In this document: in pieces, positions 19,119 through 61,985 of the stretch
Numbering within the stretch: the first letter of the stretch is position 1
How the letters are laid out: each line of letters begins with the position of its first letter
Assembly (NCBI GenBank): GCA_038044745.1
Contig: JBBSZK010000007.1
Coordinates: 45,521 to 109,520 of the forward strand
Direction: 5' to 3'
Source of the DNA: Nanobdellota archaeon
GTDB taxonomy: Archaea; Nanobdellota; Nanobdellia; Pacearchaeales; GW2011-AR1
Length of the DNA: 64,000 nt
Translations under genes and position numbers: made by a program
Notes under the pieces: model-generated
What the model was told of the DNA's origin: nothing
Database searches by the model: none
The model's input: the letters and a program-made list of their open reading frames with translations, nothing else

Positions 19119-19659
19119 TTATTTGTAGGCTTCCATTTCAATGTGGCAAGCACCCATACGTTTAGGCATCAACTTATAGATAAGGAGTTTGAGGGGGTTG
19201 CTTGCGCCATAATAGTAGCTAAATTTATGATTTTTGAACTTCCCAAATAAATGTTTTAGATGACTTGCGACAAACAAGGCATAATGGTGGTCTTCCTTTT
19301 CTCCTTGTTTTTGTTTGTGTCCGAAAGGATTTTGGCGTACAAATAATTTTTCATATGCTTTATTATGTTCGTGTTTTTTCATCAGGTGAAGCAACAAAAA
19401 TCCTGCATGGTCTGTTCTGAGCCACAATCTCCCCCCCCCTTAGAACACGAAAACATTCATCTGAAAACATTCCTAAATTTTTGATATGTTCAAGAACCGA
19501 CTTACAGTATATTTCATCAAAATAGTTATCAGGATAAGGGAGTTTTCCATTTATATCAGCAACTTCAGTGGTTGCTGAAGTTTTGAAAACATCTATTCTG
19601 TGAGTGCCGTACATATCGTTTCCACAACCCAAGTTTAGTATTTTTCTATCCATTTTCAT
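19119..19659 (-). pseudogene. class I SAM-dependent methyltransferase (Methyltransf_11-like), frame broken in a G9 run (C9 on the plus strand)
   Basis: The N-part (19363..19659) has LNLGCG and FDEIYCKSVLEHI and ends ...FRVLRGG. The C-part (19119..19427) continues LWLRTDHAGF in another frame. Removing one G at 19431-19439 gives VLRGGRLWLRTD. Confidence 0.7.
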
Positions 19660-54749: not shown

Positions 54750-55206
54750 GTTGCTCTTGAAAGAGCTACACGATTCTTATGCTTCTTTGCAACGTTCATC
54801 AGGTGTTCGTGCGAGCTTAGATGAGTTGGACGTGGCGTTTTATGTGCGCGATGCGATTTTGTCCGCAGGATATGTTAGTTCTCTTCCTTCTCAACAGCTC
54901 TGTGCTCGGATTGCGGATGTTTTTATGAATTGGAATAGTTATCTTCATGGGCTTGTGATGCCCGATCCTCATTTTTTAGTTCAGATGAATGAAAGCAAAT
55001 TTATTGATTCTGAGGGCAAGAAAGCGATTCTTGCGCTGATTGCTCGTTCTATGGTGTTTGTAAGTAGAAATACTCTCTTCCACGCACGCGCGGATTTGAG
55101 GGAAGAAGCTCGGTTTATTGACGAATCACTTGCCTTTTGGAAGAACGATTATCAACCGACTCTTATCTCGATTCTTGAAACGTTACGAGCGCGATGGAGT
55201 GGCTGA
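54739..55206 (+). CDS. hypothetical protein
   Basis: ATG at 54739 overlaps the leuS 3' end by 11 nt. 155 aa. No motif recognised. Confidence 0.45.
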   Translation: MSNELLLKELHDSYASLQRSSGVRASLDELDVAFYVRDAILSAGYVSSLPSQQLCARIADVFMNWNSYLHGLVMPDPHFLVQMNESKFIDSEGKKAILALIARSMVFVSRNTLFHARADLREEARFIDESLAFWKNDYQPTLISILETLRARWSG

Positions 55207-55344
55207 CTGTTGCTCTTTTTCCGTGAATTCGCTTATAAGGTTTGTGTTTGCCATTTTTCAGTGAATTGCTATTTAACTATGCGTGTTGTCAAAAACGTAT
55301 TTTTTAGATTATTATGACTATATAAAAAAGTTAAACTACTATCT

Positions 55345-55536
55345 GGTATGAAACAAGCCTTGCAGCCCCTGATGCTTGCGCGGTGCAGTCGGTGTGGCAC
55401 TTGTTTCGACCTCCAATACGACCTTGCGTCGTTGGGAGCCGATGACCGAGTTGTTACACAGCTCGGAAAAGCAGCACACCTTGCCGCGCGAGCCACCCTT
55501 TGTTGGAAATGCCGTTTGTAAGTGTTTACTTCCGGC
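55345..55536 (+). ncRNA. candidate ncRNA of unknown class with its own TATA box and oligo-T terminator; 5' end approximate
   Basis: TATA ctatataaaaaa at 55318-55329. GC-rich body with a 10-bp long-range helix (55374-55383 GCTTGCGCGG pairs with 55484-55493 CCGCGCGAGC), an inner GGTGTG/CACACC helix and two internal hairpins. It ends at a T-run. Confidence 0.3.
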
Positions 55537-55550
55537 TTTTTTCTTTTTTT
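55537..55550 (+). terminator. oligo-T tract (TTTTTTCTTTTTTT), archaeal-type terminator for the candidate ncRNA
   Basis: T6-C-T7 directly after the GC-rich structured region. Confidence 0.4.
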
Positions 55551-55634
55551 GTTACCCTTATTCTTATCCTTTAGTTACTCCTTCTTAGATACAACAACCT
55601 AAAGGTTTAAAAAGCCCGAATTTGTAGAAAAAGC

Positions 55635-56507
55635 ATGACAGCACAAGCACAATCTGTTGAAGTTGAAGCAGAACATAATAGCAATAGTCTTATCTATAAA
55701 ATTGCTCCATGGGGAACCGCAGTAAAATCATTATATGACGCTGGTGCCAAAGTTATCAGTTCTCGTGACCTTGCTGATGCTCGTATTGCTCTCGGTTCAC
55801 AATCTAGCGTTTCAGCCAATGGAAGCTACACAAAAGAAGGATTTATTTATGTTGCAGACCAAAAACCTCTTGTTGTTGCAGAATCTCCGCTTTTGGATGT
55901 TATGCTAGCAAGAGGCGCAAGTGACGCACACAAGGCTGAAAGCGAGGTTTTTTATGATGCTAAAGATGTTTTCGCACAACTTGATGAAGATGCAAATAAA
56001 GCTCCCCAAGACCGACGTGTCTTGCGATTAAAAAAAGATAAAAGCTATTCTGTTCCAACCAATCGATTTGGTGAAGATGAGTTGGCTTTGTTCTTATTCA
56101 AAGACAGAGCAACTGCTTATGGTACATTCTTGCGTTCTAACGACATTAAAGATATGCCTGTTTGGGTTGTTGATAAATCATATATTGATAAACAAGGTTC
56201 TCCTTTTGTTAGACAGTTGTGGCTTCACAGGCTTGACGTTGACAACCAGTCTGTTGTCTATGGCGACAACGGGGACCTCGACATGAGCAACAGGGTTCGC
56301 GGGGTGCGTCCGTCTGTCGCGAGCGAAGCTCGCGTGCGCTCTGCTGAAAGCACAGGGCAAGTTAGTGAAAATAGCGAACTTGCATACGACCCTGCACAGA
56401 TTAGTGAATATCAAACTATCCTTCAAGAAGTTCGTAAGGGAGACCGCGCCGCTTCAGACCTAGAACAAGTCTTAGAGTTTATTAATGGATTGCCGGTTAA
56501 GAAGTAA
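55635..56507 (+). CDS. DGR target (variable) protein, 290 aa; VR encoded at aa 194-225
   Basis: Contains the VR at 56216-56307 (LWLHRLDVDNQSVVYGDNGDLDMSNRVRGV). No N-terminal signal peptide or TM segment visible. TATA gtttaaaaag lies about 25 nt upstream. Confidence 0.85.
   Translation: MTAQAQSVEVEAEHNSNSLIYKIAPWGTAVKSLYDAGAKVISSRDLADARIALGSQSSVSANGSYTKEGFIYVADQKPLVVAESPLLDVMLARGASDAHKAESEVFYDAKDVFAQLDEDANKAPQDRRVLRLKKDKSYSVPTNRFGEDELALFLFKDRATAYGTFLRSNDIKDMPVWVVDKSYIDKQGSPFVRQLWLHRLDVDNQSVVYGDNGDLDMSNRVRGVRPSVASEARVRSAESTGQVSENSELAYDPAQISEYQTILQEVRKGDRAASDLEQVLEFINGLPVKK
56216..56307 (+). repeat. DGR variable repeat (VR)
   Basis: 92 nt aligned without gaps to TR (offset 582). 10 mismatches, all opposite TR adenines. 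All 64 non-A TR positions are identical. Confidence 0.9.
56318..56334 (+). promoter_or_regulatory. GC-rich hairpin 11 nt downstream of VR (CGCGAGC-gaa-GCTCGCG), candidate DGR target-recognition hairpin
   Basis: Perfect 7-bp stem seen in the sequence. Its position matches the hairpin/cruciform element described downstream of VR in characterised DGRs. Confidence 0.5.
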
Positions 56508-56797
56508 AATTCAGTACATTCCAAAACAACTATTTCTTCTTACAACAATCATTAAAAACTGTTAATTTTTGTTAATCATGCCTCGGTCACTCTGTACTGA
56601 TATGAACGGAGCATTACGAGGCCACACGTCTTTGTATTAGTCTTGCGAACGCAAGCAGTAAAATACAACTGCGACAGCCAGTATGCTATCCGGATGGCGA
56701 ACCCTGAAGCAGTGGTGACGAGCATTTACATTCAGATAAATGTGTAATTGATTTCTGAATGTGGGTGCGAGTAAATTAGGTACAAGGGCTACCCTGT

Positions 56798-56889
56798 GTT
56801 GTGGCTTCACAGGCTTGACGATGACAACCAGTCTGATGTCAATGGCAACAACAGGAACCTCGACATGAACAACAGGGTTCGCGGAATGA
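56798..56889 (+). repeat. DGR template repeat (TR)
   Basis: Non-coding copy of VR, 25 nt upstream of the RT start. 28 adenines, many in AAC/AAT-type codon positions (frame reads LHRLDDDNQSDVNGNNRNLDMNNRVRG). Confidence 0.9.
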
Positions 56890-56914
56890 CCTCAGACCGA
56901 GGTTTCATACTTAA

Positions 56915-57999
56915 ATGGAGACATATACTAAGCTCTACTCTGAGCTGTGTTCGATGGGCAATCTTACGCTTGCGTGGCGCAATGCACGCAAGGGGAAAAC
57001 ACAACAACCAAAGGTTATTGAATTTGATCGAAATATTACTGAGGCTCTTCTTGCTTTACATACTGAATTGACTACTAATAAATATCAGCCTAAACCGCTC
57101 GTTAGTTTTATTTTACGAGACCCAAAGACGCGTACAATATCTAAATCAGACTTCAGAGATAGGGTTGTTCATCACGCACTTATTACTCTCTTGAGGCCGA
57201 TTTTTGAGAAGACGTTTATTTACGATTCGTGCGCTGGCCGAATTGGTAAGGGGACTCTTTTTGCACTTAAACGATTTACCTATTTTGCACGAAAAGTCAT
57301 AGGAAATGGCAAGAATGTTTCTAATAGATATCATGACCAAAACAATGTTCGTGGCTATTGTCTTAAGGCAGATATTAAACATTATTTTCAGGAAATCAAT
57401 CATGAAATCCTCTTGAGTATTATTTTCAGAAAAATAAAGGATAAACAAGTTTTGTGGCTTATTCGCCAGATTTTGAACAATACCTCTGATCCTTCGTGGG
57501 GGGGGGGGGCGAACGCCAAAAAGGTATGCCTCTCGGAAACTATACTTCCCAATTTTTTGCCAACATCTATCTCAATGAACTTGATCAGTTTGTAAAACAC
57601 ACACTTAAAGTCAAATATTATGTGCGTTATGTTGATGACTTTGTTATCATTCATAGGTCTAAAGGGCAACTTGAGCAATGGAAAAAAGAAATCGAGTCTT
57701 TCTTAAAAGAGAAACTTCAGATTGACCTTCATGCTGATAAATCTCGTGTTATTCCCCTCTCGAGGGGTGTTGACTTTGTAGGTTTTAGAAACTTCGCGCA
57801 TTTCAGATTACTACGAAGAAGGAATATAAAGAAGATGATACGAAAAATAAGGATGTTTAAAGATGGCAAGATGGATTTTCGTCCTTTAATGGAAAGCTAC
57901 CAAGGGTGGCAGGCGTATGCGCGGTGGGCGAATACCTATAGGTTGCGTAAGAATTTGGCACGAACTCTTGTAGACATTATCTGGAATAAGGTCGAATAA
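56915..57999 (+). CDS. DGR reverse transcriptase, reading frame interrupted in a G12 homopolymer (57498-57509)
   Basis: The N-part (56915..57595 frame) carries RT motifs 1-3. The C-part (57496..57999 frame) carries GMPLGNYTSQFFANIYLNELD (DGR-type SQ motif) and YVRYVDDFVI (YxDD). A 13th G, or a -1 ribosomal slip, gives the continuous sequence ...SWGGGGERQKGMPLGN... Confidence 0.85.
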
Positions 58000-58059
58000 A
58001 AAGAGCCTTCACGGTTTTTTTCTTATCATTATCTTTATAATGCCTTTTTTTCTTAGGTC

Positions 58060-58839
58060 TTGATGCAGGAATGGCTATCGCTTCTTATTTTGGCTGTGGT
58101 GCAGGGAGTTACCGAGTGGCTTCCTATTTCTAGTTCGGGGCATCTCGTTCTTGTTGAATGGCTAATCAATTATGACGCGAGTCTTGAACTTGAAGTGGCT
58201 TTGCACTTGGGCACGCTTATGGCCATGTTTGTTTATTTCGGAAAGGATATTATGGATATCTTAGAAGACTTTTTGAAGGGTAATTGGAAAAGTGATTCTG
58301 GCAGGATGGGGTGGTTGATTATTGTTGCTACGCTGCCCGCCGTCTTTGCAGGGTACTTCTTCTACGATTTTTTTGAGCAAACGTTTAGTGATAAGGGAAG
58401 TCTTGTTCTCGGGTTCGCCATTACGGCCGTCTTTTTGGTTATTGCTTCGCTTGACTTTAAGCATCATCGCACGTCTATTCGTTTTTCTGATGCTCTTATT
58501 CTTGGGGGTGTTCAAGCGATTTCAATTCTTCCGAGTATTTCTCGTTCTGGTGCGACTATTGCTGCCGCGCTTCTTCTGGGGTTGCCTGAAAAAACTGCAG
58601 TTCGTTTTTCTTTTCTTATGGCAATTCCCGCACTTCTTGGTGCAGGTATGCTCGCACTTAATAGGGCCACGCTTCCTGCTTCGTTTATAGTGCCTACGCT
58701 TATTTCATTTGCGACTGCTCTTTTAGTGGTGCATGTCCTGTATACGAGTTTGTTGCGCGATAAGAAGAACTTGCGGTGGTTCGCGCTCTATTCGTTTATT
58801 TTGGCTGTTGCTATTCTCATGTGGTTGTTGTTCTTTTGA
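58060..58839 (+). CDS. uppP: undecaprenyl-diphosphatase (UppP/BacA)
   Basis: VQGVTEWLPISSSGHLVL and SRSGATI motifs. 259-aa polytopic membrane protein. Confidence 0.9.
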   Translation: MMQEWLSLLILAVVQGVTEWLPISSSGHLVLVEWLINYDASLELEVALHLGTLMAMFVYFGKDIMDILEDFLKGNWKSDSGRMGWLIIVATLPAVFAGYFFYDFFEQTFSDKGSLVLGFAITAVFLVIASLDFKHHRTSIRFSDALILGGVQAISILPSISRSGATIAAALLLGLPEKTAVRFSFLMAIPALLGAGMLALNRATLPASFIVPTLISFATALLVVHVLYTSLLRDKKNLRWFALYSFILAVAILMWLLFF

Positions 58840-58892
58840 CGAATGTATTTGAGCACGAGAAGGTTTTTTAAGTCGGGGCCTTAGGGATTTTT

Positions 58893-59855
58893 ATGCGGGC
58901 GTTAAAGAGGGTTGTGGCGCAAGCTTTGCGTGAACATACATTTCCGGTTCGTGAACCGGTTCATTTTTCTTTGCTTAGGCCGCCTCCTGAGTGTACTCGC
59001 CAGTTTAGATTGTTTGGGGCCCCTATTAAAACATCTATCTTGGGGACCTTTTATGACACGGTTACTGCTGCACTATACGGAGGGGAAATCTGCGGTAATA
59101 GGGCTTTACAAGTCCCTTATTTCAATGAGGGTGAACCTTTTTTTGCCGATATTTTTGATCCCGTGCGTAAAACAGTCCGAGAATCTAAGGCCTGTAACTC
59201 TACCCATACCCTTGTTCTTAAGGATAAACAACGTGAAAATTATCTTGGGCTTCAGGGGAATCATCCCGATTGGTCCGTCTTGCATTATGTGTATCGACAC
59301 GGGGTTGCTGGTATTGTGGCATATGAGGGAACTGAACATATGCTTTATGCCGATTTATCTCAGCAAACTGCTTTTTCTGTCGTGCTTCCATCAAGCATTA
59401 TTGAATCGTTGGGTGAAGTACGAAAAGATACTGACGACGTTTTTCTTGTTAGTCATTGTGAGGGTTATGCGCGCCGCCATAAGGACGGTAATGACGTTTC
59501 GCCTTCGATGCGAGTTTCTTCTCGTTTGATAAATTTGCTCTTTTCTTCTCCAGAAGACGCGTTGCGTAAACTCGCTCTCGATCCCGATCGTTACGGAGTT
59601 GATCGTTACCTAACGCACGGAGGCCTCAATATTAAACGGCGTGATGATGAAAATGACCCTGCTACCGAACGTGCGTATTTTGTAAAACCCTTTCCTGTTG
59701 TTGCGTTCACCGATAGAAATCACGAGCCGTGGGCCCGTGATTTAGGTGAAAAGATGGTGCGTTTGGAAGGGTGCTCTGATGTTGAGCGAGGGTCTTCCTT
59801 ACCTGCACCTCGTTTAGAATCACCGCATCCGGGAGAAACGCTTGTTCCTATTTAG
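58893..59855 (+). CDS. hypothetical protein
   Basis: 320-aa ORF with no family recognised. The FADIFDP...VRESK spacing is reminiscent of a PD-(D/E)xK motif, but that is weak. Confidence 0.5.
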   Translation: MRALKRVVAQALREHTFPVREPVHFSLLRPPPECTRQFRLFGAPIKTSILGTFYDTVTAALYGGEICGNRALQVPYFNEGEPFFADIFDPVRKTVRESKACNSTHTLVLKDKQRENYLGLQGNHPDWSVLHYVYRHGVAGIVAYEGTEHMLYADLSQQTAFSVVLPSSIIESLGEVRKDTDDVFLVSHCEGYARRHKDGNDVSPSMRVSSRLINLLFSSPEDALRKLALDPDRYGVDRYLTHGGLNIKRRDDENDPATERAYFVKPFPVVAFTDRNHEPWARDLGEKMVRLEGCSDVERGSSLPAPRLESPHPGETLVPI

Positions 59856-61621
59856 TTTGTAACAGTCGCTTTTATCCTTCGAACACCTGCGGCGGCGGAC
59901 TCTTCTTTAATAATTTTAAACGTTCCTATATCTTTCGTGTTTTTGACATGCGGGCCGGTGCAGATTTCTTTGCTAAACCATCCGCGTTTGTTTTTTTCGT
60001 CTTTGATAGTGTACACTGATATTTTTTCAGGATACTTGTGGCCGAACTCTGCTTGAGCTCCTTCCGCTGTTGCTTCCTTGAATGACATTTCTTCTCTTCT
60101 AACTTCTAGACTTGATTTTATCTTTTCATTAACTAACGTACTTATCTTATTGAGTTCTTCTTCGGTTAATTTTCTTGGGAAATTGAAATCAAATCTCAGT
60201 CGTTCAGGTGTGATGTTTGAACCGCGTTGTTTTACATCGGAGCCTAAGACTTGTCTAAGGGCTTCGTTGAGGAGGTGTGTTGCGGTGTGCAGACGAGTTG
60301 TATGCTCGGAGTGGTCTGCGAGACCTGATTTGAATGTTCCGGACGAGGTTGCTTTTGATAGTTCTTGGTGTTTTTTGTAGGCTTTTTCGAAGGCAATTAC
60401 ATCTACCTTGATTTTCTTCTCGCGGGCGAGTTCGACTGTCATTTCGAGCGGGAACCCGTAACTTTGAAATAACAAAAACGCGTCTTCTCCTGAAATATCT
60501 TTATTTGCGATTCTTTCAAATTCTTTCATTCCTATCGAAAGCGTCTTCTCGAATTTATTTTCTTCAGCAGATAACGTTTCATGGATGAACTTTCTTTTTT
60601 CCTTGAGCTCGGTGTAATCTTCATAGCTATCCATGACTGTTTCAGCCATTGTTTTTGTAAGGGGCTTTGCTAGACTTATGCCCAACTTTCGGCTATATAC
60701 GATTGCTCTACGAAGTAGTCTTCTGAGTACGTATCCTTGTTCGACATTGCTTGGTACAACGCCGTCTGCAATCATCATGGCGGCTGCGCGCACGTGATCT
60801 GCTACGATTCGCATCTCTTTTTCGTTGTCTTGATAGTCTTTTTCAGACATTTCTTCTATTACTTCTATGAGTGGCGCGAACGAGTCAGTTTCATAATTAT
60901 CTTCTAGATTATTGAGGGCAGCGAGTGTGCGCTCGACACCCATACCCGTATCCACATTGTACTGCTTTGCTTCTACGTACTTTCCTTCTTTTGTTTTTTC
61001 ATATTCCATGAACACATTGTTCCAAATTTCTATCCATTGAGAATCATCAGGATTGAACTTTTTCGGGGGCTTGGCTGATGAACACCAGTAGAATATTTCG
61101 GTGTCTGGTCCGCAGGGGCCCGTCTGTCCTGCAGGACCCCACCAGTTATTTTTTTTGGGAAGAAATGCAATACGGTCTTTCGATATTCCTAATGAAACCC
61201 AGGCTTTTTCTGATTCTGTGTCTTTTGGAGCGTCATCATCTCCTGCAAAACAACTGATTGCTAATCTTTCTTTAGGTAGTTTCAATGTCTTTGTTAAAAA
61301 TTCGTAGCTATATCCTATAGACTCTTTCTTCCAGTAGTCGCCTAAGGACCAATTGCCCAACATCTCGAAAAAGGTATGGTGCGTTGTATCACCTACCTCT
61401 TCAATATCTCCGGTGCGAATACATTTTTGTACGTTTACAAGTCGTTTTCCGAGGGGATGTTTTTGACCGAGTAAATAGGGCACTAGAGGGTGCATGCCTG
61501 CTGTTGTAAAGAGCACGCTGGGGTCGTTTGCGGGGACAAGTGACGCAGAAGGGATTATTACATGGTCTTTCTTCCGAAAGAATTCACAGTACTTCTTAAT
61601 GAGTTCCTTTCGAGTTATCAT
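59852..61621 (-). CDS. alaS: alanyl-tRNA synthetase, bacterial-type, short form lacking the C-Ala domain
   Basis: SASLVPANDPSVLFTTAGM, HHTFFEMLGNWSLGDYWK and GPCGPDTEIFY, plus editing-domain HTATHLL and CTGPHV. The protein ends about 35 aa after the CxxxH motif (589 aa). Confidence 0.9.
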   Translation of the reverse strand: MITRKELIKKYCEFFRKKDHVIIPSASLVPANDPSVLFTTAGMHPLVPYLLGQKHPLGKRLVNVQKCIRTGDIEEVGDTTHHTFFEMLGNWSLGDYWKKESIGYSYEFLTKTLKLPKERLAISCFAGDDDAPKDTESEKAWVSLGISKDRIAFLPKKNNWWGPAGQTGPCGPDTEIFYWCSSAKPPKKFNPDDSQWIEIWNNVFMEYEKTKEGKYVEAKQYNVDTGMGVERTLAALNNLEDNYETDSFAPLIEVIEEMSEKDYQDNEKEMRIVADHVRAAAMMIADGVVPSNVEQGYVLRRLLRRAIVYSRKLGISLAKPLTKTMAETVMDSYEDYTELKEKRKFIHETLSAEENKFEKTLSIGMKEFERIANKDISGEDAFLLFQSYGFPLEMTVELAREKKIKVDVIAFEKAYKKHQELSKATSSGTFKSGLADHSEHTTRLHTATHLLNEALRQVLGSDVKQRGSNITPERLRFDFNFPRKLTEEELNKISTLVNEKIKSSLEVRREEMSFKEATAEGAQAEFGHKYPEKISVYTIKDEKNKRGWFSKEICTGPHVKNTKDIGTFKIIKEESAAAGVRRIKATVTN

Positions 61622-61658
61622 AGGTTTATCTAGAATAGGGGGCTTTAAACGTTTTGTT

Positions 61659-61985
61659 CTAGTCTTGCTGGAGGCGTTCTATCTTGCGTTTTATTTCTTC
61701 AATTTCAAATTCAAGGTCGTGTCTCTTCTTTACGGGTACCTTTGTTATTTGGTTATCGTCTTCTGTTTTTTCCTTCATGCGAGGCAATGATCGGTCTATG
61801 ACTGATAACTCTTCACGTACTTCCCCTATTTTTCTCTTTAGAATGGATTTAAGTGCTAACTCTTGTTTTCGCAACTCTTTGTATTTCTGATATCTCTTCA
61901 TAATATTCAGCGTTTCCATCTGAGACATCAAGAGTTCTTTTTTTGAGTAGGCTTGTTCAGAGGCAGTTAGCTTTACGTATTCCAT
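61659..61985 (-). CDS. hypothetical coiled-coil protein
   Basis: 108 aa, heptad-rich. Its start overlaps the stop of the upstream ORF. Confidence 0.45.
   Translation of the reverse strand: MEYVKLTASEQAYSKKELLMSQMETLNIMKRYQKYKELRKQELALKSILKRKIGEVREELSVIDRSLPRMKEKTEDDNQITKVPVKKRHDLEFEIEEIKRKIERLQQD

Follow-up and report, generated by a model that had tools for sequence, protein, structure and literature searches.

In the 64,000-nucleotide stretch of archaeal DNA analysed here (the window), the reverse transcriptase (RT) gene of a diversity-generating retroelement (DGR) is broken at twelve consecutive G residues. The locus thus raises the question of what this homopolymer represents. A preliminary description of the window had offered three answers, namely an error of sequencing or assembly, decay of the RT or an ON/OFF switch based on slipped-strand mispairing. 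Of these, the switch proved to be the best supported, while an error was found to be unlikely and decay to fit poorly.

The sequence at 57490-57512 reads tccttcgt-G12-cga, with the G run spanning exactly 57498-57509 on the + strand. The N-terminal part of the RT (fingers, motifs 1-3; 56915..57509, + strand) is in frame up to the tract. As assembled, the upstream ORF (56915..57595, 226 aa) reads ...DPSWGGGANAKKVCLSE... and, through the tract, ...DPSWGGGANAKK, to end at a stop 86 nt past the tract, at 57595. The C-terminal part (57510..57999, + strand) is in the -1 frame, as part of an ORF of 167 aa (57496..57999), and comprises motif 4 (GMPLGNYTSQ, from 57523), the YVDD motif (57628-57639) and the thumb. 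Both halves of the gene are fully open and all catalytic motifs are present. A conceptual G13 tract yielded a single ORF of 361 aa and a conceptual G10 tract a single ORF of 360 aa; neither G11 nor G14 gave a single joined RT ORF. The joined protein matched the Pfam family RVT_1 at 3.2e-21. The preliminary description had stated that the tract splits a DGR RT just upstream of its catalytic motifs, and every element of this claim was confirmed. Its further statement that G13 or a -1 slip would give a 361-aa RT also held, as exactly G13 and a 361-aa RT occur in a sister strain.

The RT gene is the last component of a compact DGR, in which it is preceded by the target gene with its variable repeat (VR), a hairpin and the template repeat (TR). 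The target gene, an ORF at 55635..56507 (+ strand), encodes a protein of 290 aa for which no Pfam or NCBIfam match was found. Inside this ORF, at 1.2 kb from the G tract, the VR (56216..56307, + strand) gave a gap-free alignment to the TR (56798..56889, + strand), which lies 26 nt upstream of the RT start at 56915. In an 87-nt core, TR and VR showed 7 mismatches, all of them (7/7) at TR adenines; just past the core, the VR has GG where the TR has AA, again at TR adenines. A GC hairpin (C-GCGAGC-GAA-GCTCGC-G; 56318..56334, + strand) directly follows the VR and has no counterpart after the TR. Hairpins downstream of the VR are known from studied DGRs, and by analogy this one is likely to be a target-recognition element, a role that remains putative.

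These features meet the criteria of a DGR-clade RT, of TR/VR mismatches at adenine sites and of a VR inside a target gene with a 3' element of putative function. The criterion of an accessory Avd protein was not met: no + strand ORF of at least 40 aa was found between target and RT, and neighbouring ORFs had no family match. Not all DGRs have Avd, so that its absence does not exclude membership.

The genome assembly that contains the window comprises 748,836 bases in 13 contigs (43% G+C, 87% complete). Across these 748,836 bases, G runs numbered 260 for G5, 49 for G6, 4 for G7, 1 for G8 and 1 for G12. The approximately five-fold drop in count per extra base corresponds to an expectation of about 0.002 G12 runs, and the tract in the RT gene is the longest G/C run of the 749-kb genome. 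GGG makes up only 19.7% of the glycine codons of the genome, and a pure-G poly-glycine stretch is therefore unexpected from codon usage. Shorter runs generally respected the reading frame, with 3/3 G8/C8 tracts and 10/11 G7/C7 tracts in frame. A C7 run (position 25240 of contig C2) had been flagged as a third apparent frameshift and was dropped, as no convincing gene was found there on inspection.

Within the window, the only G/C runs of at least 7 nt are the G12 tract and a C9 run at 19431-19439, which is also the sole other G/C run of at least 9 nt in the genome and thereby its second-longest. On the coding strand (-), this G9 tract splits a class I SAM methyltransferase gene into ORFs of 19363..19659 and 19119..19427, with a Methyltransf_11 match on the N-terminal piece; with G8 or G11 in place of G9, a single methyltransferase of approximately 179 aa would result. 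Earlier remarks that long G/C homopolymers are rare in the window and that the run at 19431-19439 also breaks a gene were thus both upheld. An independent assembly (L235) contains the identical G9, and no length variants of this tract were found among assemblies of the same strain. The methyltransferase tract may be regarded, tentatively, as a candidate second contingency locus.

Other assemblies of the locus were located via exact matches to neighbouring proteins. G12 was present in four of them, each 100% identical to the window: ENA assemblies ERZ1292629 (Hainich well H43, replicate 1, coverage 28) and ERZ1292632 (well H43, replicate 2, coverage 20), and Logan assemblies of ERR3858118 and ERR3858116. 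The Logan runs may represent the same reads as the ENA assemblies, which would leave only two independent read sets, processed with two assemblers. A sister strain (L226; GCA_964354995.1, contig CAYHBQ010000009.1), 98.9% identical over 55068-58895, has G13 at this position, and its RT was called as a 361-aa RVT_1 gene encoding a single intact chain. The two RT genes differ by five substitutions and one G. A low-coverage contig from well H52 (L229) reads G9-T-G3, which is 13 nt long and in frame. These data show that the tract is real, that its length is reproducible in the strain and that the sister allele is one base longer and in frame. They also show that the window strain is shifted and the sister intact, and leave the direction of change between G12 and G13 undetermined.

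Comparison of the two strains also provided information on the activity of the element. Their TRs were identical (92/92), while their VRs showed 11 differences, all adenine-templated, against a divergence of approximately 1% elsewhere. The VR has thus diversified between the two strains, and the DGR must have been active in at least one of the lineages since they split. All assemblies of the G12 strain share one VR, an observation that can be accommodated by an OFF state and equally well by a recently dead element. In three assemblies contigs break at the tract or no more than 60 nt away from it (L222/L227 start at 57513, L233 ends at 57567 and L230 starts inside the tract). Such breaks are compatible with variable tract lengths, but also with nothing more than reads of poor quality over poly-G.

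Homologues of the RT numbered in the thousands, and those with names came from Nanoarchaeota, Pacearchaeota and Woesearchaeota. In a protein database search with the joined RT, the best match was 66% identical, the near-identical records lying outside that search. An alignment of the closest homologues showed GGGGER, GGGER or GGGGGGGER at the tract position in many of them, at a site where loop length varied from 0 to approximately 30 residues. DNA was then taken for 160 related loci ranked by homology, and tracts were counted over 153 of these. G7-G11 followed by CGAA occurred in the same loop in 13/153, all in frame, and three further related loci had (GA)8-13 repeats in this loop. That only in-frame tracts appeared in this sample is explained by the low rank of split genes in tblastn; the sample was judged to be ascertainment-biased toward intact genes, and a pattern-based census was used instead.

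Across orthologues, the string G(n)CGAAC is read in three codon phases, as GGC GAA CGN (G-E-R), GCG AAC (A-N) or CGA ACN (R-T), and the reading frame is regained further downstream. The use of all three phases implies repeated changes of frame, a pattern expected from slippage followed by compensation. In a tree of 159 RTs, tract-bearing enzymes were scattered and required at least 21 changes of state, of which supported branches force 9 or more. This distribution indicated that tracts have often been gained and lost, and the tree ruled out a single ancient origin. As a separate observation, the string G(n)CGAA recurs and is kept whatever the codon phase.

For the census, 401 genomes of the phylum were searched for a G9 pattern; 142 have at least one tract, and the first 60 distinct tracts of G9 or longer listed, in any context, made up the sample. 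DGR-type RT genes, which represent roughly 0.1% of such genomes, held 16 of the 60 tracts. The loop that carries the window tract accounted for twelve of these, and a second loop, around residue 133, for three; the remaining one, close to the 3' end, was ambiguous and left uncounted. Among the 15 counted RT tracts, 13 coincided exactly with a frameshift and 2 were in frame. One base fewer would be needed to restore the frame in nine of the shifted genes and one base more in four, so that all three frame states are represented across DPANN DGR RTs. One of the shifted RTs, from the same order as the window genome, also has G12, followed by CGAACG. By comparison, 19 of the non-RT coding tracts in the same census were in frame and at most 4 were shifted (Fisher p = 3.7e-5; p = 2e-4 for G9 tracts alone). 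Frameshifts are in excess specifically in RT genes, a preference that a generic poly-G artefact would not show. In two earlier respects the census and the related loci go beyond the preliminary description: its proposed comparison with orthologous DGR RTs revealed G tracts at the same position in many related archaea, and the phase-variable RT that it had called unusual turned out to involve a tract that recurs in DPANN DGR RTs and is not a peculiarity of this locus.

The shifted genes were otherwise well preserved, as 11 of the 13 showed no other lesion. The remaining two lacked the N-terminus (L201) or had a second frameshift (L202), from which it follows that some RT copies do decay. Among shifted loci with enough flanking sequence, 8 have retained TR/VR pairs whose mismatches fall exclusively or almost exclusively at adenines. 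The in-frame share of 2/15 is below the 1/3 expected from free drift, and this deficit is unexplained. Relatives also have poly-G tracts outside the RT genes, at the 5' ends of genes for surface proteins.

The intact sister enzyme was modelled with AlphaFold, with a mean pLDDT of 85.7. The only segment with a pLDDT below 50 consisted of residues 193-199, the poly-glycine loop, which places the tract in a disordered loop between motif 3 and motif 4. Another weak stretch, residues 131-150, is the second tract site. The best structural match to the model was the Bordetella DGR RT (bRT; 8ubd, 8ub7; E 8e-20 to approximately 1e-19, TM 0.70-0.78), which outranked group II intron RTs. At the RNA level, no stable structure was found in the 80 nt downstream of the tract (57510-57589), with an MFE of -6.6 kcal/mol (z = +0.91 relative to shuffled sequences).

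Outside the window, on contig C9, a tblastn search of the genome revealed another DGR. The N-terminal part of its RT shares 78% identity with that of the window, and the C-terminal part 61%; the reading frame is lost at a (GA)8 repeat situated in the same disordered loop, and (GA)7 or (GA)10 would regain it. Between the TR and VR of this second DGR, 17 of 86 positions are mismatched, in all cases (17/17) at adenines. No length variants of (GA)8 were found in other assemblies of the strain. No intact RT was detected by tblastn in the 87%-complete genome, which makes trans-complementation unlikely. Trans-complementation by another RT was rejected, the sole other RT being out of frame as well.

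The G12 tract is probably a slipped-strand contingency switch that is OFF in the population represented by the window, with the reservation that switching within a population is inferred and that read-level data are lacking. According to the proposed mechanism, a hypermutable G run in a disordered, length-tolerant surface loop of the RT would gain or lose single G residues by slipped-strand mispairing during DNA replication, which would bring the catalytic half into or out of frame. G13 and G10 would be ON lengths and G12 an OFF length. With the RT OFF, the TR would yield no mutagenic cDNA, and the target protein would stay fixed in its present VR variant until a one-base slip back turned targeted hypermutation on again. 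The locus meets criteria for phase variation in that an intragenic homopolymer is long enough to slip (at least approximately 8 nt) and far exceeds what chance would give, that close relatives differ in length in a way that toggles the frame, and that orthologues carry the tract in all frame states. That the length changes fast and reversibly in the population, that the G12 allele lacks RT activity and that the tract is maintained by selection is inferred. In particular, an adaptive role of the tract is an inference, and slippage that is simply tolerated in a permissive loop of a dispensable gene might give much the same picture.

A bolder reading can be formulated, which is slightly more likely to fail than to hold. 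It proposes that selection keeps poly-G or (GA)n switches in two dedicated disordered loops of DPANN DGR RTs, and that hypermutation is placed under a stochastic, heritable master switch, with most cells OFF and a minority exploring. The RT tract, the methyltransferase tract and the 5' poly-G tracts in surface-protein genes of relatives would then constitute a phasome, and G(n)CGAA would perhaps be a specific cassette instead of a passive run. If true, such a phasome would, to our knowledge, be the first described in Archaea.

Four alternative explanations of the G12 tract were considered. In the first, recoding by RNA-polymerase slippage or ribosomal frameshifting would yield some full-length RT; the tract would then set a low level of expression and G12 would not truly be OFF. 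Recoding would explain why the state of the frame appears unconstrained (2 in frame, 9 in need of one base fewer and 4 of one base more) in genes that are intact and associated with adenine-only patterns. Long homopolymers are known to cause transcriptional slippage, which rescues genes frameshifted at poly(A) tracts in Buchnera and Blochmannia, endosymbionts with small genomes. Against recoding, the direction of the shift and the length class vary among orthologues, whereas a programmed ribosomal frameshift would need them fixed, the 80 nt downstream of the tract lack a stable structure (z = +0.91), no VR differences were found between assemblies of the G12 population, and nothing is known on slippage of archaeal RNA polymerase at G runs. 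Its programmed ribosomal form was rejected, since in-frame, +1 and -1 states all occur and no downstream stimulatory structure is present. Recoding in general is considered unlikely; it has not been excluded, and it could coexist with switching at the DNA level.

A second alternative is irreversible decay, in which the tract is a mutational hot spot and the RT died recently by a one-base deletion, without any switch. In its favour, all G12-strain assemblies have one VR in common, two census RTs have further damage, most tract-bearing RTs are out of frame, and both RTs of the window genome are broken. Several observations oppose it. Both RT halves are open with all catalytic motifs, TR/VR mismatches are confined to adenines here and are pure or near-pure in 8 other shifted loci, and VR diversification postdates the separation from the G13 strain. 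It is also hard to explain how 11 of 13 lineages would have been caught just after death, and many RT lineages have retained or regained pure-G tracts, in two loops, despite the low share of GGG (19.7%). Tracts of the G12 type slip both ways, as judged from the behaviour of bacterial tracts (PMC6321876, PMC5084427); a G12 tract must slip in both directions, and reversion should therefore outpace decay. Decay is thus an improbable explanation of this locus.

A homopolymer error at the sequencing or assembly stage, with a true G13 and an intact RT, was judged very unlikely. It is supported by the weakness of Illumina data across long poly-G and by the three assemblies with contig breaks at the tract. 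Against it stand the recovery of G12, at 20-28x coverage, by two assemblers working on at least two read sets, and the sister strain, which assembles as G13 from the same kind of data. Further evidence against it is that census tracts in RT genes are shifted in 13 of 15 cases and in both directions, whereas non-RT coding tracts are in frame in 19 of 23, and that the G8/C8 (3/3) and G7/C7 (10/11) tracts of the genome itself are in frame.

A split enzyme, in which each of the two ORFs would give a polypeptide of its own (that of the second starting at GTG 57496) and the two would combine into an active RT, has in its favour only the GTG at the start of the second ORF and is all but excluded by the lack of a ribosome-binding motif before GTG 57496, by relatives shifted in both directions and at other positions, which leaves no common restart, by the single chain made in the sister strain and by the location of the break inside the fingers-palm connection of a single-chain fold.

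The switch interpretation bears on how DGR mutagenesis is controlled, which is an open question, as a constitutive mutator would keep destroying useful variants of its target. If true, a slippage tract in the RT would provide a simple, heritable and reversible control that needs no regulator and suits genomes of approximately 0.75 Mb with few regulators. It would extend phase variation by contingency loci from host-adapted bacteria to free-living or episymbiotic archaea. Many DGR RTs recorded as "pseudogenised" in metagenome-assembled genomes would be OFF states, with consequences for surveys that count active DGRs, and annotators and polishing pipelines would have to be cautious about "correcting" such tracts.

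In the literature searched, no published report of a poly-G switch in a DGR RT was found. A large DGR survey (PMC5758913) contains no mention of homopolymers and uses 'frameshift' only for TR/VR indels, and the word 'frameshift' does not occur in PMC8144416. A general survey of homopolymeric tracts (PMC2831843) covered 18 archaeal genomes and did not address reverse transcriptases, and a 2026 preprint on complete Nanobdellota genomes handles split genes as assembly-quality events. The mechanism proposed here is known from bacterial poly-G/C contingency loci; what appears to be new is the organism, a DPANN archaeon, and the gated gene, a DGR mutator.

Among known systems, the DGRs of groundwater DPANN and CPR organisms (surveyed in reference 23 of PMC5758913, and in PMC8144416) share the RT clade and the compact target-TR-RT layout of the present element. 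The DGR of Bordetella phage BPP-1 (bRT-Avd-TR RNA; 8ub7, 8ubd) resembles it in RT fold, adenine-only TR/VR differences, the position of the TR just ahead of the RT and the presence of a hairpin behind the VR. Unlike the BPP-1 system, the window element has no detected Avd, a target without recognisable family and a homopolymer-coded poly-glycine loop in its RT; the BPP-1 bRT is not known to be phase-variable. Small genomes with genes that are frameshifted at long homopolymers and otherwise intact are also found in Buchnera and Blochmannia. In those organisms, A/T tracts occur in essential genes at conserved out-of-frame lengths, whereas the tracts described here are poly-G, lie in a dispensable element and occur in three frame states.

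The closest parallel to the tract itself is found in the poly-G/poly-C contingency loci of Campylobacter jejuni, Neisseria, Haemophilus and Helicobacter, in which an intragenic tract of 8-13 nt toggles the frame by single bases (PMC6321876, PMC5084427, PMC8355987, PMC11868660). As in these bacteria, close relatives differ in tract length, the tract is far longer than composition predicts, and other tracts, here and in relatives, are located in a methyltransferase and in surface proteins, which are classic gene classes for such loci. The present case differs in its host, a groundwater DPANN archaeon instead of a host-adapted bacterium, and in the gene that would be gated, which is itself a mutator: a DGR RT whose tract would place a system for targeted mutation under a stochastic switch.

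In addition to the DGR in the window, the same genome carries a second DGR (contig C9:113602-115886, outside the window), which includes a reverse transcriptase gene (RT2) and a template repeat/variable repeat pair (TR2/VR2). All mismatches between TR2 and VR2 (17/17) were located at adenines only. RT2 shares 78% identity with the window RT in its N-terminal part and 61% in its C-terminal part, and is split by a (GA)8 repeat that lies in the same loop as the G12 tract of the window RT. This repeat was identical in two further assemblies; the RT2 frame is regained with either (GA)7 or (GA)10.

DGR RTs also have a second tract site, near RT residue 133, where three census loci (L208, L210, and L211) carry runs of G10-G11, with a frameshift in 3/3 cases. 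This site also falls within a weakly modelled RT loop (residues 131-150). In the census of G≥9 tracts from Nanobdellota-phylum genomes (L161-L220), CGA immediately followed the G run on its 3' side in 9/16 RT tracts versus 6/44 non-RT tracts, with a chance level roughly estimated at 2%. At L210, the G run was again followed by CGAAC, and RT2 has retained GCGAAC while its G run has been lost.

Comparison of the window with the G13 sister strain (L226) showed 98.9% identity over the DGR and uppP (55068-58895) but only 88.3% over the adjoining AlaRS region (59845-61887). The ORF at 58893..59855 encodes 320 amino acids in the window strain and 304 in L226. This mosaic of identities may reflect recombination at the DGR flank. 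Relative to its TR, the VR of the sister strain (L226:1154-1240) showed mismatches at 11 adenines and at two thymine positions, the latter representing rare non-adenine changes.

In three single-sample assemblies, contigs started or ended at or beside the G12 tract (window positions 57513 and 57567, and the start of contig L230), and two contigs from replicate 2 of the H43 groundwater well assemblies overlapped by 55 nt. Such contig ends could mean that the assembly graph branches at the tract.

Elsewhere in the window, a G9 run, second in length among the genome's G/C tracts, splits a gene for a class I SAM methyltransferase (19119-19659, minus strand). The frame of this gene is regained with G8 or G11, and the whole region is missing from a 95%-identical strain of the same sample. 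This run is a possible second contingency locus. Non-RT tracts of G≥9 in DPANN genomes were inspected at census loci L161, L165, L168, L179, and L181. Such tracts occur in a gene for a GHKL-type ATPase (at its 5' end, in a genome of the window's genus), in a SAM methyltransferase gene (within motif I), in a frameshifted quinolinate synthase (NadA) gene, internally in a large, frameshifted Asn-rich surface protein, and shortly downstream of the start of another surface protein. As a set, these genes resemble bacterial phasomes.
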